A stretch of DNA of 54,513 bases from Polaribacter sp. (GCA_045110395.1 JBGCFX010000202.1:1-54513); one strand, 5' to 3'. Numbered from the stretch's first letter, positions 19,479 to 36,616 are shown. Notes: generated by a model from the letters alone, not told the origin. A program made the numbers and translations.

Positions 19479-20051
19479 ATGTTTCAACTAGGAAAAACCA
19501 TAGTATCAGAAGACATTATCGAAAAAGATTTTGTCTGTAATTTATCTGCTTGTAAAGGAGCTTGTTGTGTAGATGGTGAAGCTGGTGCTCCTTTAGACAA
19601 AGAGGAAATCAAAATTTTAGAAGAAATTTACCCGAAGGTAAAACCGTTTTTACGTAAAGAAGGCATAGATGTTATTGAAAAACAAGGCACTTGGGTTAAT
19701 AGTGATTGGGGTGAATTAGAAACACCTTTAATTGACAATAAAGATTGTGCTTATGTTATTTTTGATGAAAAAAACACAGCACTTTGTGGTATTGAAGAAG
19801 CTTATAATTCTGGAGCAATTAGTTGGAAAAAACCTGTTTCTTGCCATTTATATCCTATTAGAGTTAAAGATTATAGCGAGTTTGCTGCTGTAAACTACCA
19901 TAAATGGGAAATTTGTGATGATGCTTGCACTTTAGGAAAAGAACTGCAAGTTCCTGTTTACAAATTTGTAAAACAAGCTTTGGTCAGAAAATTTGGTGAA
20001 GATTGGTATGAAGAGTTAGAAAAAGTAGCAGAAAAACATCTTAATTCATAG
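19479..20051 (+). CDS. DUF3109-like Cys-rich protein
   Basis: FVCNLSACKGACCVDGEAGAP, KPVSCHLYPIR. Confidence 0.88.
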   Translation: MFQLGKTIVSEDIIEKDFVCNLSACKGACCVDGEAGAPLDKEEIKILEEIYPKVKPFLRKEGIDVIEKQGTWVNSDWGELETPLIDNKDCAYVIFDEKNTALCGIEEAYNSGAISWKKPVSCHLYPIRVKDYSEFAAVNYHKWEICDDACTLGKELQVPVYKFVKQALVRKFGEDWYEELEKVAEKHLNS

Positions 20052-22836
20052 TATTTTTAGTTCTTCTTCTAAAGAAAAGAACCACAAAAAAGACCATAAT
20101 TATTGGAATAATTAGATAAAAAATAACTGAAGAAGTTTTATCAACAATAGTAGCATCACTTCCATAAACTACAAAACCAGCCCAATAATAGGGTGCAGAT
20201 AATTTACTATTTGTGTTTTCTTTTCTGTACGTTATTTTGGCATTTTTTAGAGCTTCAGATTTTGTTTGTCCAGCTTTTAAGTTTTTATAAAAAAGAACCA
20301 TAATTTTTTGGGTACTTGCATCTGGCACTTCCCATAAACTAGCAACAGTAGCAGAAACCCCAGCAAAAGTAAAAGCTCTTTGAAAAGAGGCTAAAGAACC
20401 ATTTTTTTCTAAACCACCACCAGTATTACAGGCACTTAAAATAGCCAAATCTGCACCTAAACTGATACCATATAATTCTTCTAAATACAAATGATCTTCT
20501 TCATTTTCTAAATTATTACTGAATAACAAACGACTAAATTCTGGAAAATCTTTATTTACTTCTGCATGCATAGCCAAATGTAAAATTTTAGCTTTACTAG
20601 CAGTTTTAATAAATTTTGATTTGGTTAAATTTTGTTGATTATATAATTTTGATGGAAATAATTTACTGATGGTTTTTGCCTCCTTATTTGCGCCTTCTAA
20701 AAAAGAAATTGAGCCTCTAATATCAGATTTAGTTGTTGTGTTTACATAATTTGGAGCATAAATATGTACATCATTTAAAAATGATGATTCTTGTATTTTT
20801 GGTTCTATAAAACCTAAATTAGAGGTGTATCTTATATTATAAATTTCTGTTGTTAGTTTATTTTTTGTTTTTAAAATTTCAAAAGGGAGTTTGTATAAAA
20901 TACCATCTGGGTTTATGATAATGTTGCTTATATTTTTATCTATTTTAGGAAATAGTAACTGTCCAAATTTAGAAGCTAATTCAGAATTGTAATTTTGATT
21001 ATGAGTTTCTTTGATGAATTCAGTTAATTTTTCTTGAGTTTTTTTTGTCCATTTTAGTACATCAACTTTAAAATTATTTTTAGAAATTTGATATATAGCT
21101 AATTCATCATTCAATAAAATGTACTTTAAAACCAAGTCTTTTCCAGTTAATTTTTGTTGTAAATCTTCTATAGAAAAGGTAAAATCGCTAAATAAATCTA
21201 ATTGAGGAAACAACTTTTCCTTATTAATTTGGTGTTTCTCTAATAATCTATTTATAGAATCTTGTTGTTCAATATTTTGGTTTAATTTTGCTGAAGAAAG
21301 TAAAGAAGCCAACTCTAATTGACGGTTTTTTACAGCATCTAAATTTGGTAGAGAGTTTGTATATCTATTTTCATAAAACTTTTTCCAAGCTATTTTACTT
21401 TTAAAGGTTTCAAACTTATTTAAAATTGTTTTTTGTAGAATATTATGATCAATAAAACCAGTTTTTTTATCATTTAAAATTCCCTGAATAATTTTACGAA
21501 GTTCATTGTTTTGTTTTGGGTTAAAATTTATATCTAAATAACTATTTTCAAATTGTTGTAAAGCTAAAAGATACATTTTATTAACTTTTTTCTGAATAAG
21601 TGTATCTTTTTTGTAATAATAGTTTAATTCTTCACCAATTCTAATCAATAAATTTGTATGATTATAACTTTTGCTGGGTGTAAAATTACTATAGTTTTTA
21701 TGTAGTGTGGCTTTGCCTTTATGAATTTTTTCTATGGATTTATAAAAATAAAATAAGGCACTATCTTTTTGTTTTTTCTTGGCTTTAATTTGAGCTTTTT
21801 GTGCTAAAAAAAAAGGCAGCCTTCCATCACTTTTAGAAATTCCTCGAAATAAAACAGCCATTGTACTATCTGCTTTTTCTAATTGATTCCCTCTTATAAA
21901 ACCTTTTGCAATATTGTATTTTATAGCCCAAGGAGTACCTAAATAATTTTTATTTTCAACTAAATCGAGTGTTTTTAGTAAGTATTGTAAACCAGTTGCT
22001 ACATCTTTTTGTGTGGTTAAACTATCGTGTTTATGAGATATGAACCAATCTCCTATATGATTTAATGCTGTACTATAATAAATTCTTTCTTCTTTATGAA
22101 AATCAGGTTGATTGTGCATATTTTCAAGAGATTTCATCGTATTTAATATTGCTAAACTATCTTTAGAATTTTTAGAACTATAAAATAGATATACTTTTCT
22201 ATATTTTGCAATTACGCCAAGTCTGTGATGATTTCCATTTAGCTCCCAAGTATTTTTATCTATTTCTACTTTATTTTTTGCATATACATTTTCTGCCAAA
22301 CGCATATAATATTTAGCTTTTTCAAAATTACCATAATAAGCATGATGATTAGATAATAAAAGATAAGCACCCATTAAACCACCAAAACTGGGATTTGGCA
22401 AGCTTTCTAGTAATTTGAGTGAATTCGTTATATCTTTATAACTTTTAATACTAGAACCTATTTCACTTTCTAAATATGCTTTTTTATTATAGAAAACAGC
22501 TTTTAGACTATCACCAGTATTAGAATTAGGACAAAAAAGAACTCCTTTATCTAAAGAAGATATATTTTTAATGCTTTTATTGGTTTTATGAAGACCCATA
22601 AATTGATACAAATATATTTTAGCAAAAAGTAAACTATCTTTAGAATTTGTAGATTTTAAATCTTTTAGTGCTTTGTTAGATACAGAAATAACGCTATCAG
22701 CTTTGTTTAAAAAATACAACTCACTTAACTGCTTTATAATAGAATTTGATGTTTTGGTTTGTGCAAATAACGAGTGAGAATTGAACCCAAAAAGGATTAC
22801 AAATAAGCCAAAAAATATTTTTGATTTAAAACTCAT
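20041..22836 (-). CDS. CHAT (caspase/HetF-like) protease with N-terminal TPR-like region, signal peptide and C-terminal TM anchor
   Basis: IINPDGILYKLPFE, LHLAMHA (His codon 20566-20568), LAILSACNTG (Cys codon 20428-20430), SLWEVPD, PYYWAGFV; signal ...SLFA-Q; TM followed by RRR. Confidence 0.93.
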   Translation of the reverse strand: MSFKSKIFFGLFVILFGFNSHSLFAQTKTSNSIIKQLSELYFLNKADSVISVSNKALKDLKSTNSKDSLLFAKIYLYQFMGLHKTNKSIKNISSLDKGVLFCPNSNTGDSLKAVFYNKKAYLESEIGSSIKSYKDITNSLKLLESLPNPSFGGLMGAYLLLSNHHAYYGNFEKAKYYMRLAENVYAKNKVEIDKNTWELNGNHHRLGVIAKYRKVYLFYSSKNSKDSLAILNTMKSLENMHNQPDFHKEERIYYSTALNHIGDWFISHKHDSLTTQKDVATGLQYLLKTLDLVENKNYLGTPWAIKYNIAKGFIRGNQLEKADSTMAVLFRGISKSDGRLPFFLAQKAQIKAKKKQKDSALFYFYKSIEKIHKGKATLHKNYSNFTPSKSYNHTNLLIRIGEELNYYYKKDTLIQKKVNKMYLLALQQFENSYLDINFNPKQNNELRKIIQGILNDKKTGFIDHNILQKTILNKFETFKSKIAWKKFYENRYTNSLPNLDAVKNRQLELASLLSSAKLNQNIEQQDSINRLLEKHQINKEKLFPQLDLFSDFTFSIEDLQQKLTGKDLVLKYILLNDELAIYQISKNNFKVDVLKWTKKTQEKLTEFIKETHNQNYNSELASKFGQLLFPKIDKNISNIIINPDGILYKLPFEILKTKNKLTTEIYNIRYTSNLGFIEPKIQESSFLNDVHIYAPNYVNTTTKSDIRGSISFLEGANKEAKTISKLFPSKLYNQQNLTKSKFIKTASKAKILHLAMHAEVNKDFPEFSRLLFSNNLENEEDHLYLEELYGISLGADLAILSACNTGGGLEKNGSLASFQRAFTFAGVSATVASLWEVPDASTQKIMVLFYKNLKAGQTKSEALKNAKITYRKENTNSKLSAPYYWAGFVVYGSDATIVDKTSSVIFYLIIPIIMVFFVVLFFRRRTKNTMN

Positions 22837-22864
22837 TACTGTTATTTTTTCTTTGATAGAAAGA

Positions 22865-23497
22865 CTAATTAAGATTGTTTAGTAAAACCTTTACTTCATC
22901 AATTTTAAAAGATTTTTGTTGTTGTAATTTTAGTAAATGCAATTTTGCAATATCCGTTTTTTCTAATTTTAGAGAGATTAATGCCAAATACCAAAGACTT
23001 TCTTGTTGCCATTTTTGGTTGTTATTATCAACAATTTGTTGTAATAAATCTTTTGATTTCTTATAATTTTTAATACTTAAATATGCATTTGCCTTATAAA
23101 AATTGATGGTTGCAACATCTGTAGTATCTGTGTTGGTTAATTTGTTAAATTGTGCAATTGCTTTTTGGTATTCACCAAGTTCATAAAAAGCAAAAGCCTG
23201 AGCTTTTTTAGTTAGATTTAGGTTATTTCTAACAATAGGAACAATTACATTTTCGTAAGGTGTAAAATTTTCTGCATACAATTCTTGGTTAGATAAAGAT
23301 TGATTATCAACAATAAAATAGACAGACAAACCAATTATAGCAACAATAGAAGCAGCAACTAACCAATTTATTTTCTTTGGTTTTTCAATAGATTTATCTA
23401 AAGAAGCTTCAACAGATTTTAAAAACAATTTTTGCTTTTTTCTTTCTGCTGCAGTAATTGCCTTTTTTAGGTTTTTATTAAATTCTGTATCTTCCAC
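22865..23497 (-). CDS. Single-TM TPR protein, putative anti-sigma factor
   Basis: Short N-terminal helix, TM WLVAASIVAIIGLSVYFIV, TPR-like FYKANAYL and WYLALISLK; 4 nt downstream of the ECF sigma. Confidence 0.75.
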   Translation of the reverse strand: MEDTEFNKNLKKAITAAERKKQKLFLKSVEASLDKSIEKPKKINWLVAASIVAIIGLSVYFIVDNQSLSNQELYAENFTPYENVIVPIVRNNLNLTKKAQAFAFYELGEYQKAIAQFNKLTNTDTTDVATINFYKANAYLSIKNYKKSKDLLQQIVDNNNQKWQQESLWYLALISLKLEKTDIAKLHLLKLQQQKSFKIDEVKVLLNNLN

Positions 23498-23501
23498 TAC
23501 A

Positions 23502-24047
23502 TTATTTTTTTATAAAATCTTTTAATTGTTTTATACATCTCGATTTCTGACTTTTCACCACATTTTTATTATTATAATTCAATTTTTCAGCAATTTCATC
23601 AATTGTAAAACCTCTGTAATAAAACAGCGTTAATACTTCTTTACATTTTTTACCAAGTTCTGCAAACCCTTTTTGCAATAAAAGCTGAAATTTATTTGGT
23701 TCTTCATCAAAAAAATCATCAGCAATTTCTTTATAATTATAAGCTTCACTTTCTAAAGGGAAATCAGAATTTGTTTTACTATTTTTTCTCGCTTTTTCAT
23801 ACAGCATATATTTTCCTATGCCAAATAAATAAGTTCTAATAGAACAAGTTAAATTCATTATATCACCTTTTATAGCTTTCTCTTGCAAAGTAATAATTGC
23901 ATCTTGATATACATCTAAAATATCAGCATTAGAAAGATGAAACTTTCTAGCAAAATTGATAAAGGCATCTCTATTATCAACATATATTTTTTTAAGCGTC
24001 TTTTTATCAGATGCTTTTAAAAGAATTATAAGTTGCTGTTCGTTCAT
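23502..24047 (-). CDS. ECF-type RNA polymerase sigma factor (start corrected to 24047)
   Basis: Region 2 DILDVYQDA..RTYLFGIG and region 4 LGKKCKEVL.LFYY...IDEIAEKL...VKSQKSRC; the upstream 32 codons are low-complexity intergenic DNA. Confidence 0.92.
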   Translation of the reverse strand: MNEQQLIILLKASDKKTLKKIYVDNRDAFINFARKFHLSNADILDVYQDAIITLQEKAIKGDIMNLTCSIRTYLFGIGKYMLYEKARKNSKTNSDFPLESEAYNYKEIADDFFDEEPNKFQLLLQKGFAELGKKCKEVLTLFYYRGFTIDEIAEKLNYNNKNVVKSQKSRCIKQLKDFIKK

Positions 24048-24172
24048 TAATGATAGAAAAATAGAAAAGTAAACAAAAAAATAAAAATAATTAAAAAATG
24101 TTAACCTTTCTATTTTTAAAACATTAAAAGAAAAAAGACTCATAATTTATATTACAAATTACTGCAAATAAA

Positions 24173-24275: not shown

Positions 24276-25643
24276 ATGAAAATTATTAAAATAGTAGCAT
24301 TAAGTTTTTTTTTAATAGGAATAAGTATGCCAACAAATGCTCAATTCTGGAAAAAGCTAAAGAAAAAAGTTCAAAAAAAAGTAGAGCAAAAAGTTGATGA
24401 AAAAATAGACAAAGAGACCGATAAAATTATTGATAGTACTTTAAACGGAAAAGCAAAGAAAAAAGAAGTAGTAAAAAAAGATGCCAGATTAAAATCTTAT
24501 GGCTCTGCATCAATTAGTCATTCTGCAATTTACGGAATGTTTAGTGTAAACGATTTAACTAAAACTAAACTAAATAAAGAAGGCAAAAAGGTATCCGTAA
24601 AAGGATATTGGAGAACTTCTGGAGCAGATGTTTTTGATGGTTATATTTTAAATATTAGTACTGTTGATGATATTAATGCACTTCAAAATAAAACCTTTAA
24701 AATTCCAGAAGAGGCTACACTAAAATTAGCTTATAATGCCTTGGTAAAAGGAGAATATGTTTACAAAAGAGGTCAGATTCATGCGCCTCAAAATTTGCAA
24801 GTTAGTTCAGGTTCTGTAACGATCTCTTTTAATAAAGACAATAATGTAAATATCAATTTTTCTGGAAATGTAAAATTAAATAATCATAATAATCCTTCAG
24901 CTCCTAATACTTCTTCTACAATTAATGGAATGATTAGCACAACAGCACCAGAATTTACAATTACTAAAGAAAGAAAAGAACAACAAAAAGACGCTGTTGA
25001 TGAAATGTCTGAAGAAGAGAAAATGGAGGTATTTAAAAAAATGTCGCCAACAGTAAACATTCCATCAACATTTAGTTTTAATAAAACTATTGAAGTAAAA
25101 ATGACAGATGAAAAAGGAGATTCTCAAACAGTAGAATTTTTAACAGGAAGTTATCCAGATATTTATGCACTGGCTGTAGCACCAAAAGAAATGCAAGGTC
25201 AAGAAATGCTGATTGTAAATACGCCTAAATCATCATCTATATTTATGAATATGGGAGGTATGAAAATAAAGAAAATAACCTCTTTAGAGCAAATGGGAAG
25301 CCAATACAATATGGTAGAAAATTTACCTGAAGATGGAGATTTTAAATATAAAAAAACAGGAAAAACCAAAACAATTATTGGCTATTTATGTGAAGAAGTA
25401 AAAGTTGAATACGATTACACAAACTCTAAAGGAAGTGCTTCTTTTTGGTTATCTAAAGACTTTCCAATTCAAAATAAAGCAATACCAATGTTGGGTATGA
25501 GAATGAATAATCCTAATTTTTCTGGTTTTGTTTTAGAAATGAATACCACACAAAATGGTAAGAAATTTACTATTGAAGTTACAAATATATCAGACAAAAA
25601 TGTGTCTATCAATACAAATGAGTATAAAAAAATGGGATTTTAA
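24276..25643 (+). CDS. Secreted protein with C-terminal DUF4412-like domain
   Basis: Signal ..TNA-Q, Lys-rich QFWKKLKKKV N-terminus, YKKTGKTKTIIGYLCEE, C-terminal INTNEYKKM. Confidence 0.75.
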   Translation: MKIIKIVALSFFLIGISMPTNAQFWKKLKKKVQKKVEQKVDEKIDKETDKIIDSTLNGKAKKKEVVKKDARLKSYGSASISHSAIYGMFSVNDLTKTKLNKEGKKVSVKGYWRTSGADVFDGYILNISTVDDINALQNKTFKIPEEATLKLAYNALVKGEYVYKRGQIHAPQNLQVSSGSVTISFNKDNNVNINFSGNVKLNNHNNPSAPNTSSTINGMISTTAPEFTITKERKEQQKDAVDEMSEEEKMEVFKKMSPTVNIPSTFSFNKTIEVKMTDEKGDSQTVEFLTGSYPDIYALAVAPKEMQGQEMLIVNTPKSSSIFMNMGGMKIKKITSLEQMGSQYNMVENLPEDGDFKYKKTGKTKTIIGYLCEEVKVEYDYTNSKGSASFWLSKDFPIQNKAIPMLGMRMNNPNFSGFVLEMNTTQNGKKFTIEVTNISDKNVSINTNEYKKMGF

Positions 25644-25656
25644 AAAAACAAAAACT

Positions 25657-28600
25657 ATGAAAACAAAATTACTACTACTATCACTTTTTTTAGCAACTCA
25701 GGTTAGTTTCACACAAATAGATGTTACTCCAAATCAATTAAAACCAATAGAAATTGCAAAAATCACTTCAACAGAAACAACAAGTTATTTTGGTAATTCA
25801 ATAAGCTTTTCTAACGATGGTTCAGTGTTGGCTATTGGCGAATCTGGTTATGGAACTTTAGATAGAGTTAGTAGTGGTAGAGTTCGTGTTTACACAAATG
25901 AAACTGGTATTTGGTCGCAAAAAGGGCAAGATTTAATTGGTATAGAAGATTTTTTTAACGCTTTTGGTACAAAAGTAGAATTGTCTTCAGATGGTAATAC
26001 ACTTGCAGTATACGATTCTCAAATTAATCTCACTTTAAATGCTGGTGAAACTTTAGCAGATAAATATGGAGATTTAGCACCACAGTATTTTCCTTACATA
26101 CAGGTTTATCAATTTATAAATGAAGCTTGGGTAAAAGTGGGCGCAGATTTTTTATGGGATGATGTTTTGGATGTTGTAGATATGTCTCTTTCTGGAAATG
26201 GAACATCAATAGCAATAGCAGGTAAAACAGGAACAAAAACGTATGAATTAATTGCAAATACTTGGAATCAAACTGGTCAAGAAATTCCTGCAAGAGATCA
26301 AATTTATAACGAAAAAGTAGATTTATCAGCAGATGGTAAAACCTTAATTATAGGCGATAGTCATTTTAGTGAATCTAACAACCAAAACCCTTCTTGGGAA
26401 GGTCAGGTAAAAGTATATGAATATAATTCAACTACTTGGACTCAGTTAGGAAATACTATTAAAGGAGCTATAAATTTAGGACTTTTTGGTAGTGAGGTTA
26501 GCATAGCAGCAGATGGTAAAACTATAGCAGTTTTGGCATCACAGATTAGTAATGATGATTATATTGCCGTTCTTGAGTTTACAGGAGGTAATTGGGTTTC
26601 TAAAGGAACAAATATTCAACAAAAAAATGCTGAAATAACAAGTATGCAACTTTCTGGTGATGGAAATGCAATAGTTATTGGAGAAACATTATCTGCAAGA
26701 GTGCTAAAATACAATACAGATTGGGAGCAAGTAAATGTAGCAGCTGAAGGTGATAATAACACAGATGGATTTGGTAAAGCAGTAACTATCTCCGCAAATG
26801 GAAACGTTTTTGCAGTTGGAGCTCCTAATAGTTCAAATGGATATGTAAGTATTTTTAATCATAATAAAAATAGTGCAACTCGTTTTGGAGATGAAATTTA
26901 TGGTTATGGCGATTATGATAAACTAGGAAGTAGTGTAGCTGTTTCTGGTAATGGAAATATTATTGCTATGGGTGCAGAAGGTAATTATAATGATAATGGA
27001 ACATATAGATTTGGACACGTTAGAATTTTTGAAAAAACAAATAATGGATTAGAACAAATTGGCGTAGATCTTAGAAATACAACAGATTTTGATTCTGGTG
27101 CTTTTGGATCAGAAGTGTCCTTGAATGAAGATGGAACCCTTTTAGCTATTGCTGCTTCTTATTTAGGCACTAGCAATAATGGTGCTGTTTATGTATATCA
27201 AAGAAATGGTGATACTTGGGATCCTATAGGAAATATAATTACAGATCCCAAAGGTGATAGAACAGGTTCTTCCCTTGCTTTTTCAGATGATGGATCTATT
27301 TTAGCAGTAGGTTCAGGAACAAACCCTACTGGTGGTTCTACAACTAATTACAAAGGATTTACTACTATTTATAAATATAACAATACTAATAATCTTTGGG
27401 AAGTTTTAGGGCAACAAATTTTAGGAGAAGCTACAAGAGATTACTCAGGAGCATCCATAGATTTATCTGGTGATGGAACCATAGTTGCAATAGGTGCTTA
27501 TGGAAATGATGGAGAAACAACTAATGGAGGTCATGGACACGCAAGAGTTTTCAAATTTGTAAACAATAGTTGGGAACAAATGGGAGAAGATGTTGATGGA
27601 AATGCAGATTTTAATATAAATTTTGGAGGTGTTGTAACGCTCTCTAATGATGGTAAAACGTTAATAGTTTCAGATTTGAGTTCGCAAACAAGTGCTGGAA
27701 GTGTAGAGATATTCAATTGGAATAATAATACTAGCCTATGGGAACATGAGGTACAACTTAAATCTTTTAAAAGTTCAGGAACAAATAATTTTCATAGATA
27801 TAAATTTGGATCCTCTACTGCTATTTCTAATAATAAAAAAGTTTTAATTGTTGGAGAAACAGAAAATGTTCAAGGTAAAGTATATGTGTATGTAAAAAAC
27901 GAAACAGGAACTTGGGTAGAAAATGATTTGTTTTTAAAAGGAACAAAAAAATCTGGTCAGTATTTTGGGAATGATGTTAGTTTAAGTAGTAATGGAAACA
28001 CACTTGTTGTGGGTTCTGAAAGACATAATCAAAAAGGAACTCAAACAGGTATGGCTACAGTATATCATCTAAATTTATGTTCTTCTGTAGAAGGTTTTGA
28101 AGTTTTTGATGGTGTAGAAAACTATCCACTTTCTACTTCAAACAATTTGGTAATAAACGGAAGTGCAGAAATTTTACCAATAACAGAAAATGGTTGGACA
28201 ACTGTTTCTGGTAAATGGGAATGGCCAATAAGAAATGTACAAGGAGTTCCTGCAAAATACGGACATAAATATTTTAAAACAACAATATCAGGGGCTGCAG
28301 AAATTTATCAAGATGTAGATGTATCCTCTTTTAGTACTTCTGTTGATGCTGGAAATCAATATTTTTACTTCAGTGCTTATCTTCAATCTTTTCAGGTAAA
28401 TAGCGTTGAAGATGATTCGCAAGTTATTGTAGAATATAGAGACATTTCTGGAAACGTATTAGCAACTTATGATACTGGTTTGTCTCAAATAACTGAAGAT
28501 TGGACCTTGTTTAAAGATACACGTTTAGCACCAATTGGTACAAAAATAATTCGTGTAAGGTTAAAAGCAATTAATAATAATCAATTTCGTGCTCCTTTGG

Positions 28601-29970
28601 CTTATATAGATAATGTGTTTTTAAGTACAACAATAGCACCTAATGCAGTAAGTATACCAGATGCAAATTTCGAGCAATATTTAATTGATGCCAATATAGA
28701 TTCTGATGCAACTATAAATGGTCAAGTTTTAAAAGTTGATATAGAAAATGTTACGCAAGTTATTGTTAATGACAAGAATATTTCAAATTTAACAGGAATT
28801 CAAGAATTTACAAGCTTAGTTGAATTAAATGCAGCAAATAACCAAATAGCAACAATCGATTTAAGTAAAAACCTGTTATTAGAAAAATTATACATAGCTA
28901 ATAATCAATTATCAAAAATAGATATATCAAAAAACACAAAACTTAAAAACTTAGATGTTGGTGAAAATAGTTTAAAAGAATTAGATGTTCATTTATTATC
29001 AAATTTAGAAACACTTTCTTGTTATAAAAACCAATTAAGTACTATAAATTTAATTTCAAATAAAGAATTGGTGACATTTATTGCGAATGAAAATCAATTA
29101 AAATATGTAGATATTAGAGAAAACAAAAACCTATTTTGGTTAGATGTTGATGACAATTTATTAGAAGATTTAATGCTTAAAAATGAAAATAATTCAAAAA
29201 TAACCACTTTTAGTATCACAGGAAACCCAAATTTAACCTGTATAGAAGTAGATGATGTTAATTTTAGCAATACAAATTGGACTAATAAAGATGCTACAGC
29301 AAATTATTCTACAGATTGTGCACCTTCTAATGATGATTGTGCAAAGGCAATTCCGTTAACTTTTGGGCAGCAAACTCCTGGAGATATAAATAGTGGAAAC
29401 GCAAACAACAACCCAAGTTGTGCAACAGGCACAGTTTTAGCAGACGTTTGGTTTTCTGTTGTTGTACCACAAAGTGGCGAGTTTAGTGTTCAAGGTACTG
29501 GTTTTGGTGGCAATTTAAAATTTGCTATTTATCAAACCTGTGCTAGTTTAGCACCAATTGCTTGTGGAGAAAATATCTCTTTGAAAAACTTAACAGTAGG
29601 CACAAAATTCTACCTAAAAGTTTGGTTAGAATCTGATTCAGGAAAAAACGCAACAAAAATAGAAACTGGTACTTTTACTTTAAAAGCAGAAGAATCTAGT
29701 GTTTTATCTGTGGATAATTTTACAGCAGATAACTCACAATTATTGGTGTATCCAAATCCTGCAAAATCAAGTATTTCAATAGAACTATCTAATAGTTTAA
29801 CTATTGTACAAGTTGAAGTGTATAGTGTTTTAGGTGATAAAATAATTACTCAAAAAGGTTTAAACAAATCAAAAATAGGTATTGATGTTTCTAATTTATC
29901 AACAGGAATTTATTTTATAAAAGCAAAAACAAATAATGGAGTTTTGTCTAAAAAGTTAATTATAAAATAA
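25657..29970 (+). CDS. T9SS-secreted multidomain protein: 14 FG-GAP-like blades, FBA-like domain, LRRs, NDxC..DVWF domain, type A CTD (start corrected to 25657)
   Basis: Signal MKTKLLL..SFT-Q; 14 FG.xVxLSxDGxxLAVG repeats; IPDANFEQYL cap plus LRRs; VYPNPA..GIYFIK..KKLIIK. Confidence 0.9.
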   Translation: MKTKLLLLSLFLATQVSFTQIDVTPNQLKPIEIAKITSTETTSYFGNSISFSNDGSVLAIGESGYGTLDRVSSGRVRVYTNETGIWSQKGQDLIGIEDFFNAFGTKVELSSDGNTLAVYDSQINLTLNAGETLADKYGDLAPQYFPYIQVYQFINEAWVKVGADFLWDDVLDVVDMSLSGNGTSIAIAGKTGTKTYELIANTWNQTGQEIPARDQIYNEKVDLSADGKTLIIGDSHFSESNNQNPSWEGQVKVYEYNSTTWTQLGNTIKGAINLGLFGSEVSIAADGKTIAVLASQISNDDYIAVLEFTGGNWVSKGTNIQQKNAEITSMQLSGDGNAIVIGETLSARVLKYNTDWEQVNVAAEGDNNTDGFGKAVTISANGNVFAVGAPNSSNGYVSIFNHNKNSATRFGDEIYGYGDYDKLGSSVAVSGNGNIIAMGAEGNYNDNGTYRFGHVRIFEKTNNGLEQIGVDLRNTTDFDSGAFGSEVSLNEDGTLLAIAASYLGTSNNGAVYVYQRNGDTWDPIGNIITDPKGDRTGSSLAFSDDGSILAVGSGTNPTGGSTTNYKGFTTIYKYNNTNNLWEVLGQQILGEATRDYSGASIDLSGDGTIVAIGAYGNDGETTNGGHGHARVFKFVNNSWEQMGEDVDGNADFNINFGGVVTLSNDGKTLIVSDLSSQTSAGSVEIFNWNNNTSLWEHEVQLKSFKSSGTNNFHRYKFGSSTAISNNKKVLIVGETENVQGKVYVYVKNETGTWVENDLFLKGTKKSGQYFGNDVSLSSNGNTLVVGSERHNQKGTQTGMATVYHLNLCSSVEGFEVFDGVENYPLSTSNNLVINGSAEILPITENGWTTVSGKWEWPIRNVQGVPAKYGHKYFKTTISGAAEIYQDVDVSSFSTSVDAGNQYFYFSAYLQSFQVNSVEDDSQVIVEYRDISGNVLATYDTGLSQITEDWTLFKDTRLAPIGTKIIRVRLKAINNNQFRAPLAYIDNVFLSTTIAPNAVSIPDANFEQYLIDANIDSDATINGQVLKVDIENVTQVIVNDKNISNLTGIQEFTSLVELNAANNQIATIDLSKNLLLEKLYIANNQLSKIDISKNTKLKNLDVGENSLKELDVHLLSNLETLSCYKNQLSTINLISNKELVTFIANENQLKYVDIRENKNLFWLDVDDNLLEDLMLKNENNSKITTFSITGNPNLTCIEVDDVNFSNTNWTNKDATANYSTDCAPSNDDCAKAIPLTFGQQTPGDINSGNANNNPSCATGTVLADVWFSVVVPQSGEFSVQGTGFGGNLKFAIYQTCASLAPIACGENISLKNLTVGTKFYLKVWLESDSGKNATKIETGTFTLKAEESSVLSVDNFTADNSQLLVYPNPAKSSISIELSNSLTIVQVEVYSVLGDKIITQKGLNKSKIGIDVSNLSTGIYFIKAKTNNGVLSKKLIIK

Positions 29971-29998: not shown

Positions 29999-31453
29999 TT
30001 ACTTTAAAGGAATTTCTAAAATTACTTTAGTACCAGTTGCTTTGTTTTTTTCATCAACCAAATCTATATAAGTAATAGCATAGTTATTTTTAAAATTCTT
30101 TACAAAATTATCTAATCTATCTTTAGTTAAACTAATACCTACAGCCCCTCTTTTTATCGATTTCTCTGACTTTATTTTTGCAGATGCAATTCTCCCTATT
30201 CCATTATCTTCAATATTAATTTGAATAAAGATCTCTGTAGTTTTTTGTATGTTTAACAGTATTTTTTTATCATTTTTTTTAGATGATAAGCCATGCCATA
30301 ATGCGTTTTCTAAAAAAGGTTGTAAAATTAGTGGAGGTAATTTTGTAGTTTGTAGGTTTATGTTTTCATCAACAATAACTTGAAAATCTATTTCATTAGA
30401 GAAACGAATATTTTCTATAGTCATATACAAATCCATTGTTTCTAATTCTTCGCTTAAAGTAGATTCTTTTTGTTTAGAAGCTTCTAATATTTTTCGAATC
30501 AACTTAGAGAATTTATTCAAATAATGTGAAGCTTTTTTGGGTTCATTATTAATAATGTGCAATTTAATAGAGTTTAGCGCATTAAAAATAAAATGAGGAT
30601 TCATTTGAGTTAGTAAACTTGTAAGTTTTAACTCATTTATTTGTTTTTCGTAAAGGTTTTGAACTTCTGTTATTTTTTGAGTTTCAATTTTTTCTGATAA
30701 CTTCTCATTTAAACGATCTTTTAAAACTTCATTTTTTTGTAATTCTGCAATTAAAAGCGAATTGTAATTATTACTTTCTTGTCTATAAATATGATATTTA
30801 TACCCCAAACCAATAGACAAAGTAATAGCTTCTAATAAAACACCTATCATAAAAAAATCTATAGGTCTTATAAATTTTATAGGATAATTTTCTGAAATTA
30901 CAGATAAATAAAGCGCTAAAACAGAAAAACCTAAAAAGAAAATTAAGCCTACAACAAAAAACTTGTTTATTTTATCTTTAAACTTATAAATCGCCTTTAA
31001 GAAAAAGTACACAAAAAGTAAAGAAATTGGCGTAAAGACAAACATAAAAAAACGTGCTATATATTTCATTTCTAGAAAGAACAAATCAATAATAAAAAAG
31101 AACGTGCTAAAAATGGTTGTTATTAAAATGTAAAACGAAATTTGTTTTGCTAATTTTAAGTCTTTGTTTTTTAAGTTTAGAAAATGAATAGCAAAACAAG
31201 AATATAACATCCAATACCAAATCTGAATCACCCAATTAAAACTCGTAAAAAAATAATCAAAGTTTTCTGATAAATAATTAGAACTAGTATTTATTGTTCT
31301 TGGTATTAAATAAACTGCTACTAAAAATAAATAGGCAGCATACATTACAAAACTCTTGTCTTTGGTAAAAAAGTATGAAGTTGTATGGTATGCTATTAAA
31401 ATAAATAACATGCCTTGTAACCAAGAAGAAAAATCTAGAAAAAAGAGTTCCAT
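29999..31453 (-). CDS. LytS/YehU-type sensor histidine kinase with 7TM input domain
   Basis: Seven TM segments (7TM-DISM-like), QMNPHFIFNALNSI H-box, LQPFLENALWHG, EDNGIG. Confidence 0.9.
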   Translation of the reverse strand: MELFFLDFSSWLQGMLFILIAYHTTSYFFTKDKSFVMYAAYLFLVAVYLIPRTINTSSNYLSENFDYFFTSFNWVIQIWYWMLYSCFAIHFLNLKNKDLKLAKQISFYILITTIFSTFFFIIDLFFLEMKYIARFFMFVFTPISLLFVYFFLKAIYKFKDKINKFFVVGLIFFLGFSVLALYLSVISENYPIKFIRPIDFFMIGVLLEAITLSIGLGYKYHIYRQESNNYNSLLIAELQKNEVLKDRLNEKLSEKIETQKITEVQNLYEKQINELKLTSLLTQMNPHFIFNALNSIKLHIINNEPKKASHYLNKFSKLIRKILEASKQKESTLSEELETMDLYMTIENIRFSNEIDFQVIVDENINLQTTKLPPLILQPFLENALWHGLSSKKNDKKILLNIQKTTEIFIQINIEDNGIGRIASAKIKSEKSIKRGAVGISLTKDRLDNFVKNFKNNYAITYIDLVDEKNKATGTKVILEIPLK

Positions 31454-31456
31454 AAT

Positions 31457-33379
31457 TTAATTTGTGGGTATTTTAAGCCCCACTTTTGTACCTAAAGGGT
31501 TTTTGTTTTCATCTACTAAATCATTAAAAACTAAGCTAAAAGGATGTTTAAAATCTTTGATAAAATTATTTAATCTTTCTTTAGTTAAATGAATACCTAT
31601 AGATTTTCTTTGAATAACTTTATTCGATTTTATTTTTGCGGATGCTTTTCTGCCAATTCCATTATCTGTAATATCTATCTGAATAAAATCTTTGGAAGGT
31701 TTAAAAACAGATAAAACAATATTTTTTTCTCCTTTTTTAGAAGACAATCCATGCCATAAAGCATTTTCTAAAAAAGGTTGCAAAACTAAAGGTGGTACTT
31801 TTATAGATGATACATCAAGAGTCTGATCAACATTAATTTCATAGTTAATTTCGTTAGAAAAACGGATATTTTCTATATTCATATACAGATCCATCGTTTC
31901 TAATTCCTCTTGTAAAGAAACTTCTTTTAAAGTAGATGATTCTAGTATTTTTCTTACCAATTTAGAGAATTTATTCAAATAATGAACCGCATTTTTCTTC
32001 TCGTTATTTATAATATAATGTTTAATAGAATTTAAGGCATTAAATATAAAATGCGGATTCATCTGCGTGCGTAAAACATCTTGCTCTAAGGTTAAAATCT
32101 TTTTTTGATTTTCTAACAAACGTTGTCTGTAGAGGAAATATAAAACAGCCAACAAAAGCATTAAACTAACAAGAATAATAACCCAGATATTTCTATTTTC
32201 TATAAGTTGTAATTGGGCAATTTTATTTTGTTCTGCTAAACTTTTTATCTCGTTATTTTGTCGTTCACTGTCGTACTTAATAATTAAATCGTTTACATAT
32301 TGAATGGTTCTTTCGTTAGAAATTTTACCTTCGAACTTTTCAGAAATCTTATAATATTTCAACGCATTTTTATAGTCATTTTTACTTTGGTATAATTCAG
32401 AAAAATGACTGTAAGCATAAGATAAAGCAGAAGCAAAATCATATTTTTTTGCGATTTCAAGCCCTTTATTCAGGTTTTTTTCAGCCTCAGAAAACTGTTT
32501 TAATCTAGATTGTGCCCAACCTAAGTTTAAATATTCGTAAGCAAGATATTCTTTATTCCCAAATTTTTCTGCGGTTTGTAAATTCTCTTTAATTAAGACT
32601 AAAGCTTTTTCAGGTTCTCCTTGTTTTATATACATATTTGCAATACTACTTTTGCAAATAATTAAGCCATAAGTATTGTTTATTCTGTTGTTTATTTCTA
32701 AAGATTTTTTAAAATACTCTAGAGCTTCATCACTTTTACCTTGTGCATTTTTTGCATAGCCAATGTTTTGATAATTAATGGCTAAGCCTAATTCATTATG
32801 AATGCTCCTTTCTATTTCTTGCGATTTTTTAAAACGTTCTATGGCTAAATCATACTGTTTTAAAAGCAAGTAAATATTACCCATACTATTTAAAGAAACA
32901 GCAATACTTCTTCGCAAACCCAAACTCGGTTTTTCTACAGTTTCTGCAAGAGATAAAGCTTCATGATTATAATCTAAAGCAGTTCTGTTAGCGTCAATTT
33001 TTCTATAATCTACACCTAACATATTTAAGCTAAAAACACGAAATTCTATGCTATTGGCTCTTTTTGCAGTTTCTAAAGCGTTTTTATGTGTTGCAATTGC
33101 TTTTTTGTATAAAGAATAGTTTCTGTATCTAATTCCTAAAAGATTTTCTACATAGGTTTTACCATCTAAATAATTGTTTGTTTCAAAAGTAATTACGAGT
33201 TCTTTTAGTTTGGTTGTATCTCTTCTAAAAGGTCTTAAAAAAGAATTAATACCTTTATAAGTAATTGGTTTTACTTTTAAAATACTGTCTATTTGCGTTT
33301 TAAAATCAGGTTTTTGTTGTTGTCCATTTATAATAAAAGTACAACTAAGAAAAAGCAATAATGCAAGGGCTCTTAACAT
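31457..33379 (-). CDS. LytS-type sensor histidine kinase with periplasmic TPR input domain
   Basis: Signal peptide, TPRs (SLNSMGNIY, NYQNIGY), one TM, QMNPHFIFNALNSI, ENALWHG, DNGIG. Confidence 0.92.
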   Translation of the reverse strand: MLRALALLLFLSCTFIINGQQQKPDFKTQIDSILKVKPITYKGINSFLRPFRRDTTKLKELVITFETNNYLDGKTYVENLLGIRYRNYSLYKKAIATHKNALETAKRANSIEFRVFSLNMLGVDYRKIDANRTALDYNHEALSLAETVEKPSLGLRRSIAVSLNSMGNIYLLLKQYDLAIERFKKSQEIERSIHNELGLAINYQNIGYAKNAQGKSDEALEYFKKSLEINNRINNTYGLIICKSSIANMYIKQGEPEKALVLIKENLQTAEKFGNKEYLAYEYLNLGWAQSRLKQFSEAEKNLNKGLEIAKKYDFASALSYAYSHFSELYQSKNDYKNALKYYKISEKFEGKISNERTIQYVNDLIIKYDSERQNNEIKSLAEQNKIAQLQLIENRNIWVIILVSLMLLLAVLYFLYRQRLLENQKKILTLEQDVLRTQMNPHFIFNALNSIKHYIINNEKKNAVHYLNKFSKLVRKILESSTLKEVSLQEELETMDLYMNIENIRFSNEINYEINVDQTLDVSSIKVPPLVLQPFLENALWHGLSSKKGEKNIVLSVFKPSKDFIQIDITDNGIGRKASAKIKSNKVIQRKSIGIHLTKERLNNFIKDFKHPFSLVFNDLVDENKNPLGTKVGLKIPTN

Positions 33380-33389
33380 AGAATATGGG

Positions 33390-34124
33390 TTAAAGTTTTT
33401 CTAAAAATTCAGATTTACGTTGTCTAGAAACTGGTATTTTTGCATTGTTTTCTAAAACTACATACCCATCAGATTTCAGAAACTCTTTAATTTTATTAAG
33501 GTTGATAATAAAAGAATTATGAATTCTAAAAAAATAATCTGTAGGTAATAATTCGTTAATTTCTTTCAACTTTTTTGTAACCACAATTTTTTTGTTATTT
33601 GATAAATAAAGTGTGGAATAATTACCATCAGATTCTGCATAAAAAATATCATTAGGTTCTAAAAAAACTAATTTTCCATCTGTATTTATGGTAATTTTTT
33701 TGTGATGCCTTTTGTTGTTAAATTTTAGTAAAATATCTTCAAATTTATCTGTACTAAAACCTTTTGTAAGGTGTTTTTTAATTTTAGAAATGGTTTCTCT
33801 TAAATCGTCTGTATCTATTGGTTTTAGCAAATAATCTATGGCTTCTTTTTTTAAGGCAGTTATGGCATATTCATTATAAGCAGTAGTAATTACAACTGCA
33901 AAATCTTTTTTTTCTAACTTTTCTAAAAACTGAAAACCATCCATAGTTGGCATTTCTATATCTAAAAAAAGACAATCTATTTTAGAAGATTTTAAATAAG
34001 GTATGGCTTTTTCTGGTTCTGTAAATGTGGCAATTACTTCTAATTCGTCTTCAAAATTAGAAAGTTCCCAAGTTAAGCTTTGAATGGCTTTAGGTTCATC
34101 ATCAATAATAACAGCTTTAATCAT
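33390..34124 (-). CDS. LytTR-family response regulator (start corrected to ATG 34124)
   Basis: AVIIDDE, FLDIEMP, DYLLKP, FFRIHNSFIIN, IPVSR; the TTG at 34142 lies inside the -7 box TAACTTTG (34140-34147). Confidence 0.95.
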   Translation of the reverse strand: MIKAVIIDDEPKAIQSLTWELSNFEDELEVIATFTEPEKAIPYLKSSKIDCLFLDIEMPTMDGFQFLEKLEKKDFAVVITTAYNEYAITALKKEAIDYLLKPIDTDDLRETISKIKKHLTKGFSTDKFEDILLKFNNKRHHKKITINTDGKLVFLEPNDIFYAESDGNYSTLYLSNNKKIVVTKKLKEINELLPTDYFFRIHNSFIINLNKIKEFLKSDGYVVLENNAKIPVSRQRKSEFLEKL

Positions 34125-34257
34125 TGTAGTCAATTTTATCAAAGTTAAAATTTATTTCTCAATTATACTTTATAGTTGTACAAATTGAGAACAATCTCTT
34201 ATAACCTGCTTTTTTTTGATGATAATTGGTTTGTTTAATGCTAAAATTAACTCAAAC

Positions 34258-34327
34258 CCATTTATACAGAAAACTTAACCAAGCATACAAAGGTTCTTTT
34301 TTAAAATTGAATTTTACCCAACATTTG
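34258..34327 (+). promoter_or_regulatory. Putative LytTR binding site with weak -7 element (cargo promoter 2)
   Basis: TATACA at 34263 and CATACA at 34284 (21-bp period); AACATTTG at 34320-34327. Confidence 0.75.
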
Positions 34328-34360
34328 CAACATAAAATTATTGCCTAAAAAATTAAAACT

Positions 34361-36616
34361 ATGAAAACAAAATTACTCATCATCTTATTTTTTGCTACTA
34401 CAAGTTTAATAAGTGCTCAAAAAACATTAATACCAGATGCTAAATTCGAACAATACTTAATTCAGAGTAATATAGATTCTGATGGAACTGTTAATGGAGA
34501 AGTATTAACTGCAGATATTTCTGGTGTAAAACAAATAGATATTTCATTAAGAAATATAACAGACTTAACAGGACTTCAAAATTTTACTTCTTTAACGTAT
34601 TTAAATGCTTTTGAAAATAAACTAACAAGCATAAATGTTAGTCAAAATACTAATTTAGAACAATTGTATTTAACAGGTAATAAACTAACAAGTATAGATG
34701 TTTCTAACAATGTTAAGTTAATTCAACTAAGTGTTTCAGATAATTTATTAACCTCAATAGATGTTTCTAAAAATGTAAAATTAGAGTCTTTAAGCTTAAC
34801 AATAAACCAATTAACAACTTTAGATGTTTCTAATAATATAAAATTAACTAGTTTAAAATGTGGTAGTAATAATATTAATAATCTAAATGTTAACAATGTA
34901 ATAGATTTAGAGGAACTCTGGGTTCCTGAAAATAAACTTTCTCAACTAGATATTTCTGGTAGTACAAAACTTAAAAGTATTAATGCAGGTGAAAATGATT
35001 TAACTACAATAGATTTGTCTAACCATTTAGTTTTAGAAAATGTAAGTTTTAATGACAATAAATTAACCGAATTAAATATTAAAAATGGAAATAACGTTAA
35101 TATTACCACTTTTAGAAGCGATAGAAATTTCGATTTATCTTGTATAAAAGTAGATGATGCAAATTATAGTGCAAATAACTCAGGTTGGACTAAACATTTT
35201 GAAAGCACCTATTTAGAAACTTGTGGAGAAGGTACTTTTATACCAGATGCAAATTTTGAATTGTATATTGAATCTTTAGGATTAGGAAATGGTATTAATG
35301 ATGATAAATATGTAGATACAAATAAAATTTTAGCACTTACAACATTAGATATTTCGAATAGAAATATAAGTAATGCAGAGGGTTTACAAGATTTTGTTGC
35401 ATTAACAAGCTTAAATGTTTCTAGAAACCAAATAACAACAATAAATGTAAGTAAATTAATAAATTTAGAAGAATTTGTGTGTTTTGATAATAAACTAAAA
35501 AGTTTAGATGTATCTAAAAATACAGCCCTTAAAACTCTAAATTTTGGTAAAAATGAAATCTCAGAAATAGATGTTAAAAAATTAACAGAATTAGATCGTT
35601 TATTTGCATTTAATAATAAATTAACAGAATTAGATGTATCAAAAAACACAAAATTAGAAGTTTTAAATTGTAGCACAAATCTATTAGAAAGTTTAAATGT
35701 ATATTCTAATATTAACCTAGAAAATATAGATGCATTTGAAAATAAGTTAAGTTTTTTTGACATTCAAAAGAATATAAAACTAATTAACCTAAGCATTAAT
35801 GATAATGAACTAATTGGGTTAAACCTTAAAAACGCTAACAACACAAAAATTGAGTTTATTTTTATAAATAACAACCCAAATTTAACTTGTATAGAGGTAG
35901 ATGATATTGCATACAGCAATACAAATTGGACTCATAAAGATGCACAATCTACTTTTTCTAGAGATTGTACACCAGTAAATGATAATTGTGCAAATGCAAT
36001 TCCGTTAACTTTTGGGCAGCAAACTCCTGGAGATGTAAATAGTGGAAATTCTAATAACAATGCAACTTGTGTAACAGGTACTGTAATTGCAGATGTTTGG
36101 TTTTCTTTTAATGTGCCAAAATCTGGTGAGTTTAGTGTAGAAGGAACTGGTTTTGGTGGCGAACTTAAATTTGCGGTTTACGAAAACTGTACAACAGCTA
36201 TGACACTTGCTTGTGGTAAAAACATATCTTTAAAAAACTTAACAAGTGGCTCTGAGTTGTATTTAAAAGTATGGATAGAAGCAGCTTCTGGTAAAAATGC
36301 GACAAAGATAGAAACAGGAACCTTTACAATTAAAGCAGAAGAAACAAGTGTTTTATCTGTAGAAAATTTCGAGGAATTAGGAAATCAGTTTTTATTGTAT
36401 CCAAATCCTGCAGAAGCAAATTTTACAATTTCATCAACAAAAAATACCATACAAAATATAGAAATATTTAATGTTTTGGGTAAAAAAGTGTGGAGTAAAA
36501 GTGTGAAAAATCAATCTAAAATAAATATAAACTCAGCAGATTTATCAAAAGGAATTTATATGATAAAAGTTAATTCTGATAACAAAATAATCTCTAAAAA
36601 ATTAATAATCAATTAA
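34361..36616 (+). CDS. T9SS-secreted leucine-rich-repeat protein (two LRR modules, NDxC..DVWF domain, type A CTD)
   Basis: Signal ..ISA-Q; two IPDAxFE caps, 21-aa NxLTxLDVSxN repeats, LYPNPA..GIYMIK..KKLIIN. Confidence 0.92.
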   Translation: MKTKLLIILFFATTSLISAQKTLIPDAKFEQYLIQSNIDSDGTVNGEVLTADISGVKQIDISLRNITDLTGLQNFTSLTYLNAFENKLTSINVSQNTNLEQLYLTGNKLTSIDVSNNVKLIQLSVSDNLLTSIDVSKNVKLESLSLTINQLTTLDVSNNIKLTSLKCGSNNINNLNVNNVIDLEELWVPENKLSQLDISGSTKLKSINAGENDLTTIDLSNHLVLENVSFNDNKLTELNIKNGNNVNITTFRSDRNFDLSCIKVDDANYSANNSGWTKHFESTYLETCGEGTFIPDANFELYIESLGLGNGINDDKYVDTNKILALTTLDISNRNISNAEGLQDFVALTSLNVSRNQITTINVSKLINLEEFVCFDNKLKSLDVSKNTALKTLNFGKNEISEIDVKKLTELDRLFAFNNKLTELDVSKNTKLEVLNCSTNLLESLNVYSNINLENIDAFENKLSFFDIQKNIKLINLSINDNELIGLNLKNANNTKIEFIFINNNPNLTCIEVDDIAYSNTNWTHKDAQSTFSRDCTPVNDNCANAIPLTFGQQTPGDVNSGNSNNNATCVTGTVIADVWFSFNVPKSGEFSVEGTGFGGELKFAVYENCTTAMTLACGKNISLKNLTSGSELYLKVWIEAASGKNATKIETGTFTIKAEETSVLSVENFEELGNQFLLYPNPAEANFTISSTKNTIQNIEIFNVLGKKVWSKSVKNQSKININSADLSKGIYMIKVNSDNKIISKKLIIN

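Follow-up and report, generated by a model that had tools for sequence, protein, structure and literature searches.

A site-1 cut of the anti-sigma of a sigma factor with extracytoplasmic function (ECF) is exemplified by DegS and RseA, and DegS, PrsW and Prc are known types of site-1 enzyme. The closest precedent for the locus described here is DdvA/DdvS of Myxococcus xanthus, which, as described in PMC11506125 (PDB 8rot), combines an ECF sigma factor, a single-pass anti-sigma and a periplasmic TPR-CHAT region with a His-Cys dyad. A CHAT site-1 cut in the juxtamembrane linker, followed by RseP, is proposed in that paper, where DdvA without TPR-CHAT is reported as an RseP substrate. A TPR-CHAT fold is also found in Csx29 of the type III-E Csx29/Csx30/RpoE system, whose substrate is a neighbouring sigma-binding protein (PMC9729208). 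Here we analyze a 54,513-nt stretch of DNA from Polaribacter sp. (GCA_045110395.1, JBGCFX010000202.1:1-54513; the window), in which adjacent genes encode an ECF sigma factor, a transmembrane (TM) protein with TPR-like helices (TM-TPR) and a membrane-anchored TPR-CHAT protein. We think it probable that these genes belong to a conserved module in which the anchored TPR-CHAT protein, predicted to cut TM-TPR after Arg90, frees the sigma factor for nearby exported-protein genes.

The three open reading frames (ORFs) lie on the minus strand in the order sigma, TM-TPR and CHAT, with gaps of 4 nt and then 28 nt. The sigma gene (23502..24047, 181 aa) begins with the ATG at 24047, where its homologs of 180-183 residues begin too. 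Its product matches TIGR02937 (E 7.7e-18, 64.7 bits against a cut-off of 42.9) and Sigma70_r4, with a weak match in region 2, and at about 180 aa it has the ECF arrangement of sigma-2 and sigma-4 only. TM-TPR, the predicted anti-sigma (22865..23497), has 210 aa and a GTG start. The CHAT gene (20041..22836) encodes 931 aa comprising a signal peptide, a TPR superhelix, a CHAT protease domain and a C-terminal membrane anchor. These ORF calls and the TIGR02937 match agree with the initial annotation, which had described a triad headed by an ECF sigma gene with the same gaps and the same 931-aa length. The sigma, TM-TPR and CHAT genes are each single-copy in the source genome (tblastn), and the named homologs of their products come mostly from Polaribacter and other Flavobacteriaceae.

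The CHAT protein contains PF12770 at residues 627-893 (E 6.1e-51, 174 bits against a cut-off of 24), and this match together with a His-Cys dyad places it in clan CD with predicted protease activity. The dyad is formed by His757 (20566-20568) and Cys803 (20428-20430), which span 20428..20568 on the minus strand and lie 46 residues apart, as had been noted; His757 aligns with DdvA His862, and both residues are kept in 120 of 120 family CHATs. Hydropathy gives two hydrophobic segments (7-25 and 904-922) and none between them. The first falls in a predicted Sec signal peptide, residues 1-25 (22762..22836, minus strand), followed by Gln26, whose column is Gln in 75 of 83 aligned CHATs, and a Gln after the signal peptide fits the Bacteroidetes Q-rule as given in PMC5837995. 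The second is a predicted C-terminal TM anchor (20071..20127, minus strand) with the basic tail RRRTK, in line with the signal peptide, TM segment and RRR described earlier. The net charge is higher after the anchor than before it in 108 of 113 anchored family members. In TM-TPR, basic residues lie ahead of its hydrophobic segment 45-63 (hydropathy). From the CHAT signal peptide and anchor and these basic residues, the catalytic and TPR domains of both proteins are predicted to be periplasmic; hydropathy, charge and Gln26 thus support the claim that the protease and the TPR domain meet in the periplasm, and the two proteins would share this topology.

The predicted CHAT model (predicted local distance difference test [pLDDT] 85.3) matches Csx29 (E 3.9e-16) and DdvA (E 1.8e-12) in Foldseek, and the CHAT domain also aligns with that of DdvA at E 2.5e-9. 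The model superposes on the separase protease domain with a Z of 26.1 and a root-mean-square deviation of 3.3 over 310 residues (VIA-align). The TPR superhelix resembles the peptide-binding proteins LGN, Rap and NprR at Z 22-24, a generic likeness that is no evidence for a peptide ligand, and in PDB sequence searches that used full-length alignments the best 60 matches were all generic TPR proteins.

TM-TPR is composed of a cytoplasmic helix (3-37, from the model), a TM segment (45-63), a periplasmic linker and TPR helices (97-209). Its predicted structure is TPR-like (pLDDT 79.7; Foldseek match to the YbgF TPR, E 5.7e-4), so that hydropathy and model uphold the description of a single-TM protein with a TPR-like C-terminus, although the Pfam TPR matches are weak (best E 4e-6). 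As in class I anti-sigmas, the gene directly follows that of the ECF factor and the product has a single TM with its N-terminus inside; the three-helix bundle plus helix 4 of that class is absent, the model having one helix. In class I anti-sigmas, according to PMC7406223, the contacts to sigma-2 and sigma-4 are made by helix 4 and helix 1, respectively, so that inhibition by one helix alone is plausible as a prediction, and the sigma-2-binding C-terminal helix holds 12 of the top 14 predicted contacts. The short N-terminal helix of the initial annotation is indeed present as one helix; what had been missed is that relatives carry a longer cytoplasmic domain, truncated here by about 34 N-terminal residues relative to full-length relatives in the alignment. 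The short N-terminus occurs in 54 of 57 near-full-length close homologs and in 6 of 100 triads, and among the 54 short homologs the conservation of the remaining helix is 0.78, compared with 0.64 for the TPR domain. Because the short form is common to close homologs and the helix is well conserved, it is neither an error nor a recent break. The anti-sigma model NF052375 matches 18 of 40 full-length relatives (best E 8e-8), either below its cut-off or with the cut-off untested. We infer that TM-TPR is an anti-sigma.

Two further anti-sigma forms were encountered among the surveyed loci (L numbers). At L057:3258-3884 there is a second, apparently separate, N-terminal shortening of the anti-sigma, in another CHAT clade. 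At L227, L229-L232 and L252-L255 the gene after the sigma gene encodes a TM protein of 370-410 aa that has a TPR end and a long linker from which the Arg motif is missing; this related anti-sigma type has no CHAT within 1.5 kb.

The three-gene set is a widely conserved module. In a sample of 200 Flavobacteriaceae genomes, one per genus, PF12770 matches occur in 101, and CHAT loci were fetched for 120 of the 149 listed matches (every fifth was skipped, and 36 further matches were unlisted). With a C-terminal anchor defined by a hydropathy of at least 1.4, 113 of these CHATs are anchored and 7 are not. A sigma plus TM-TPR pair lies near 89 of the 113 anchored CHATs (within 1.3 kb in 68 and within about 4 kb in 21) versus 0 of the 7 unanchored ones, and 6 of the 113 have a single partner, most of these lying where the fetched sequence ends. 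Gene order varies among convergent, divergent and co-linear arrangements. The survey is consistent with the earlier expectation that similar triads co-occur elsewhere in Bacteroidetes. Per genome, CHAT and TM-TPR are both present in 96, CHAT only in 5, TM-TPR only in 2 and neither in 97 (n=200), counts that are biased toward co-occurrence because the profile was built from CHAT neighbours and 13 candidates were scored per genome; the TM-TPR profile scores split clearly (E < 1e-37 versus > 1e-16). TM-TPR matches lie within 10 kb of a listed CHAT match in 121 of 149 cases, and among the other 28, 20 were fetched (8 left out), with a CHAT in 11 and none in 9. Phylum-wide, CHAT matches occur in 84 of 150 genomes. 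The pair is found in 9 of the 14 loci of the same class among 40 hand-picked phylum loci, and in 6 of the 26 loci of other classes the partners are weak and divergent, the CHAT being unanchored in 4 of these 6. Within the source genus, 12 of 36 other genomes match the window CHAT. A scan of genome contigs with a single protein query gave only 2 loci; the metagenome scan used an 11-row alignment biased to LSAC-type CHATs, two broader alignments being too variable, and L359 was excluded as a spurious TM-TPR match.

The predicted cut site lies in the TM-TPR linker. Arg90 (codon 23228..23230, minus strand), the predicted P1 residue, is located 27 residues past the TM and is invariant in alignment A1. 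In 99 of 100 rows the TM is followed at a distance of 21-27 residues by a conserved residue, in a linker that is extended and of lower confidence in the model, and the residue after P1 is small (G, S, D, N, T or A) in 99 of 100, with one E. The hypothesis and the region to be tested were fixed ahead of the covariation test. In the training set of 100 triads, Arg goes with Asp839 of CHAT in 71 of 71 and non-Arg residues with Glu839 in 29 of 29. Column 839 is the sole error-free CHAT column, followed by 719, 801, 808 and 713, all in the catalytic domain, and in the reverse scan column 90 ranks first in TM-TPR. When the tree is built with these columns left out, P1 and residue 839 change 4 times on the same branches, for which the length-weighted chance estimate is about 4e-7 before correction for the columns scanned. 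A held-out set comprised 48 triads, 11 genomic and 37 metagenomic; the P1 residues of L334 and L354 were set to Arg by eye after a misalignment of 1-2 columns. Under a two-residue rule over all 148 triads, 111 of 111 Arg triads keep Glu719 and Asp839 (column 719 is not covered in 3), and in 36 of 37 non-Arg triads Glu719, Asp839 or both are replaced, the exception having Lys. The Arg rows have 30 columns with conservation of 90% or more; of these, Glu719 and Asp839 deviate in a larger number of non-Arg lineages than any other (4 of 7 each), Ser801 deviates in 3 and the dyad in none. The long-branch Arg rows L115, L170 and L176 keep both acids, and general divergence does not explain the covariation well. 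Both TM-TPR genes from genomes without a CHAT match (L160 and L162) have lost the motif.

In the CHAT model, Glu719 (20680-20682) belongs to the helix that follows the first core strand, and strand 5 is followed closely by Asp839 (20320-20322); the two codons delimit 20320..20682 on the minus strand. As given in PMC4626109, MALT1 Asp365 and gingipain Asp163 bind the P1 Arg from the helix that corresponds to that of Glu719, and the segment after strand 5 carries MALT1 Glu500 and caspase-3 Arg207. By covariation and clan CD placement, Glu719 and Asp839 are candidate S1-pocket acids, assigned by region and not by residue-level equivalence. A conserved self-cleavage Arg in a CHAT loop near 711 was also considered and rejected as a general feature, being present in only 19 of 71 Arg-type rows.

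Several observations concern specificity elsewhere in the family. DdvA (PDB 8rot) has Asp943 at the column of Asp839, which hints that a cut in the DdvA linker could follow Arg. A 29-member CHAT clade (L105, L110, L113, a subset of L117-L152, L173, L263, L282 and L357), mostly of 1070-1100 aa, co-linear and LTAC-type, has the linker PGLPT(T/V)M(S/G) and is likely a Met-specific branch; L219 and L264 reach Met separately from it.

Complex prediction of CHAT 46-896 with TM-TPR 66-210 scored 0.54, a result rated weak, compared with 0.00 for the best of 3 controls. The runs agree in at least 70% of contacts, and the partner pLDDT is at least 83. Of 157 solved pairs 116 reach the pass mark, as do 2 of 215 mismatched ones, and the passing scores of 0.60 or below belong to 18 of the 157 solved pairs and to both passing mismatched pairs. 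The covariation lends indirect support, and the complex prediction weak support, to TM-TPR as a candidate substrate of CHAT.

A gapped, promoter-like motif occurs upstream of the closest sigma genes in 20 of 43 regions (z 16; at most 10 in shuffles). A matrix trained on 42 loci, with the window excluded, gives 32 divergent and 24 sigma-strand sites in those loci versus 0.45 in shuffles. Applied to the 3.16-Mb source genome, it finds its best site (score 26.2) at 24099..24127 on the plus strand, a predicted promoter TGTTAACCTT-N13-CATTAA directed toward the divergent exported-protein genes. The second-best site genome-wide (score 21.6) is a second copy at 24047..24075 on the minus strand, which ends on the A of the sigma start codon. 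The other loci have 53 sites that point at targets; an ATG follows 43 of them at a distance of 17-48 nt, and for 47 of the 53 the N-terminus encoded behind the site is hydrophobic on a crude scoring. Of 21 sigma-directed sites, 18 have a motif end between -1 and +1 nt relative to the ATG of the sigma gene. No motif was found within 300 nt upstream of the CHAT start in any of 42 loci. The strict motif is present in 7 of 40 other genomes of the genus, all 7 of which have CHAT matches. Since motif and sigma co-locate, we infer that the sigma factor reads the motif.

The first predicted target is an exported 455-aa protein (24276..25643, plus strand) with no Pfam match, related to motif-led DUF4412 proteins: it matches neighbours in L028, L031, L023 and L045 (BLASTP E 7e-11 to 1e-7), that of L023 being DUF4412. 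The second is an FG-GAP/LRR protein secreted by the type IX secretion system (T9SS) (25658..29970, plus strand, ATG at 25658; Por_Secre_tail E 1.4e-15 and FG-GAP_2), and because of the 14-nt gap the two genes are probably co-transcribed. Motif-led neighbours in other loci match DUF4412, OmpA, beta-barrel, Kelch, subtilase, collagen-like and T9SS cargo families, and 23 of 44 scanned have no Pfam match. Should the 3' block of the sigma-strand copy serve as the -10 element, the transcript would begin within the sigma ORF, and we would guess that it carries the anti-sigma and, here, the protease only; autorepression or a misassigned element are alternatives.

In the proposed mechanism, TM-TPR and CHAT would sit in the inner membrane with their TPR and CHAT domains outside, and the cytoplasmic helix of TM-TPR would keep the sigma factor inactive. 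A cue acting on the TPR superhelix would switch CHAT on, and CHAT would cut the linker after Arg90. Loss of the TPR cap would expose the stub to an RseP-type intramembrane protease, and an RseP-like ORF, the candidate site-2 protease, is present in the source genome (C264:5338-6690, motif scan). The freed sigma factor would then read TGTT(A/T)ACCTT-N13-CATTAA promoters, here ahead of the 455-aa exported protein and the T9SS cargo, while the motif copy abutting the sigma ATG may start a transcript of anti-sigma and protease only, resetting the switch.

A number of results weigh against this mechanism. The window TM-TPR is without the helices that touch sigma-4 in class I anti-sigmas, and it matches no anti-sigma model. 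Asp839 alone failed as a predictor of Arg in 4 of the 48 held-out triads (L219, L264, L271 and L339 keep Asp839 without Arg), and the two-residue rule is post hoc, framed after these failures. Independent changes are few, and with only about 7 lineages the sign tests are not significant (p 0.125; p 1 for a basic P1 versus Glu719). Glu719 and Asp839 are also the family default, shared by unanchored CHATs without a sigma gene. Asp839 lies four residues after Trp835, and Csx29 Lys670, the stated equivalent of separase Asp2151, lies eight after its Trp, so they are different residues; an equivalence of Asp839 with Asp2151 was rejected for this four-residue offset. The CHAT autoproteolysis of DdvA is itself proposed but unproven in PMC11506125. 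In the survey, 18 of the 113 anchored CHATs have no pair in the fetched stretch, and outside the family some unanchored CHATs have pairs (L190, L192, L197, L202 and L340). Finally, among 20 hand-picked TM-TPR loci of other orders, 12 lack a CHAT gene within the sequence fetched, which reached up to about 9 kb on each side, and 3-4 of these 12 carry the Arg motif.

Four other explanations were weighed. The linker could be a docking or inhibitory pseudo-substrate in the CHAT site, or could be cut constitutively in maturation, the signal passing through release of the complex or through another protease. Covariation and a weak complex score show fit, not catalysis; securin is a pseudo-substrate inhibitor of separase (PMC10317155), and DdvA dyad mutants still repress DdvS (PMC11506125). 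However, securin as described in the former paper replaces the P1 Arg with a large hydrophobic residue, whereas here Arg and the small next residue are kept, and the dyad is intact in every one of the 120 CHATs, so we regard this explanation as rather unlikely. We give little weight to the possibility that the sigma factor controls CHAT as part of its regulon, with CHAT processing another exported protein (a lipoprotein, subtilase or T9SS cargo) while the anti-sigma is controlled independently. It would agree with the motif-led lipoprotein or subtilase genes directly upstream of CHAT on the same strand in several loci (for example L023, L028, L036, L045, L053, L064, L067 and L088), with the occurrence of orphan pairs and orphan CHATs, and with actinobacterial ECF54, for which PMC7826278 describes CHAT and subtilase neighbours and no anti-sigma, but it does not account for the way in which a TM-TPR residue varies together with the CHAT pocket in about 6 of 7 lineages, or for the nearly matched genome presence of CHAT and TM-TPR while other neighbours vary.

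The remaining two explanations seem to us improbable. One interprets the module as a switch for defence against phage, comparable to DdvA/DdvS or to the protease-sigma systems linked to CRISPR, as its closest structures (Csx29 and DdvA) are defence-linked; yet none of 9 window proteins has a PADLOC match, the neighbours are housekeeping genes, the site beside DUF3109 is common to several triad loci, and the Pfam-matched motif-led genes are mostly of exported types, so that we hold it very unlikely. The other, which we would credit least, is that the family works as proposed but the truncated TM-TPR of the Polaribacter-like clade no longer restrains the sigma factor, the module being rewired or decaying. 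The loss of about 34 N-terminal residues and the presence of the window CHAT in just 12 of 36 other genomes of the genus would fit such decay; the better conservation of the remaining helix than of the TPR domain (0.78 versus 0.64), the share of top class I contacts held by the sigma-2-binding helix (12 of 14; PMC7406223), and the intact Arg90, dyad and both motif copies argue against it.

If cleavage after Arg90 operates as proposed, the implications would extend beyond this locus. We judge the chances to be about even that the triads represent a large undescribed Bacteroidota module family of periplasmic caspase-like site-1 proteases, with pocket and cut site co-tuned (Arg, Met, Lys), local exported-protein regulons and a reset promoter that skips the sigma start. 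Re-tuning of pocket and cut site could then insulate paralogous switches within one cell. The module would also offer a testable case of CHAT-mediated anti-sigma cleavage, as proposed for DdvA, where a signal for showing it has been lacking; a predicted scissile bond, naturally occurring specificity variants and a predicted promoter make a split system testable even before the cue is identified. The CHAT genes of about half of the sampled Flavobacteriaceae genera (101 of 200) would thereby gain a role, and the module would name a regulatory mode for Bacteroidetes ECFs, only 6% of which are assigned class I anti-sigmas in PMC7406223.

The genes flanking the triad are housekeeping genes by Pfam. 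The 3' end of the CHAT gene overlaps a convergent DUF3109 gene by 11 nt (20041-20051), and DUF3109 is also within the fetched stretch of L002, L003, L005, L021, L029, L041, L048, L049, L065 and L068, which suggests an old site that is patchily retained. Farther along the window, 29999-36616 encodes two histidine kinases of the LytS type, with 7TM-DISM and TPR sensors, and a LytTR regulator; these genes are flanked by two related T9SS/LRR cargo genes, at 25555-29970 and 34361-36616. Another genome (G009) has two triads about 6 kb apart (L021, 1-2205 and 6804-10787) around a T9SS/LRR cargo gene resembling that of the window.

The survey also revealed CHAT variants. Seven CHATs (L073, L075, L079, L084, L087, L094 and L103) have neither a C-terminal anchor nor a sigma pair, most with a signal-peptide-like start; they keep Glu719 and Asp839 and must act on other substrates. 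In a widespread subfamily with CHATs of 850-900 aa (L091, L098, L100, L104, L106-L108, L114, L126, L128, L136, L138 and L141), 2-3 genes lie between the sigma pair and CHAT, encoding a DUF7849/DUF7619/PKD protein, a 330-aa lipoprotein-like protein and a 146-aa exported protein. In L063, L064, L067, L080, L086, L088, L092, L099 and L111, genes for 419-524-aa exported proteins adjoin CHAT, and 4 of 4 scanned are subtilases; this cluster echoes the CHAT-subtilase link of ECF54, and the subtilase is a possible upstream activator or substrate.

Compared with known systems, the triad shares with DdvA/DdvS a periplasmic TPR-CHAT adjoining an ECF/anti-sigma pair, as predicted from hydropathy, charge and the Q-rule. 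In DdvA, as described, the anti-sigma and TPR-CHAT are fused in one chain, whereas here, as in all triads surveyed, they are separate ORFs, the protease carries a signal peptide and a C-terminal anchor of its own, and the anti-sigma has a small TPR cap. DdvA has a CHCC zinc centre and targets CBASS and CRISPR genes (PMC11506125), whereas the window TM-TPR has no Cys or His before the TM and the predicted targets are exported proteins. The initial annotation had named Csx29/Csx30 as the analogue: the likeness of the TPR-CHAT fold (Z 27-29) stands, but as a precedent DdvA/DdvS, with TPR-CHAT fused to the anti-sigma, is closer. Csx29 is cytoplasmic, is activated by Cas7-11 and target RNA, and cuts after Leu407 in the organism of PMC9729208, whereas here no Cas partner is seen, the topology is exported and the predicted specificity is for Arg. 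The 9 window proteins searched have no PADLOC match and the flanking genes are not Cas genes (the whole genome was not searched for Cas7-11), in keeping with the earlier view that the system is CRISPR-independent. ECF54 resembles the triad in having an ECF sigma gene beside CHAT-TPR and subtilase genes, but as described in PMC7826278 it is 100% actinobacterial, has no anti-sigma and uses a GTATCAG / CTCC promoter; with Flavobacteriaceae homologs, TM-TPR in the +1 position and another motif, the triad falls outside that group. The separase protease domain superposes on CHAT, and separase cuts after Arg in unstructured linkers (PMC10317155), but it is eukaryotic and soluble, its Arg-binding Asp is one helical turn from Asp839, and the site predicted here is without the ExxR motif. 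With regulated intramembrane proteolysis the triad shares the predicted two-step site-1/RseP logic and topology (PMC11506125) and the RseP-like gene; it differs in that each sigma pair would come with its own dedicated clan CD cysteine protease as the site-1 enzyme, in place of an enzyme of the DegS, PrsW or Prc type. We found no published description of the triad in the open-access literature. In its predicted logic, the triad is a split form of DdvA/DdvS that works like general site-1/site-2 proteolysis, and it is outside the DdvA-type, craspase and ECF54 groups.

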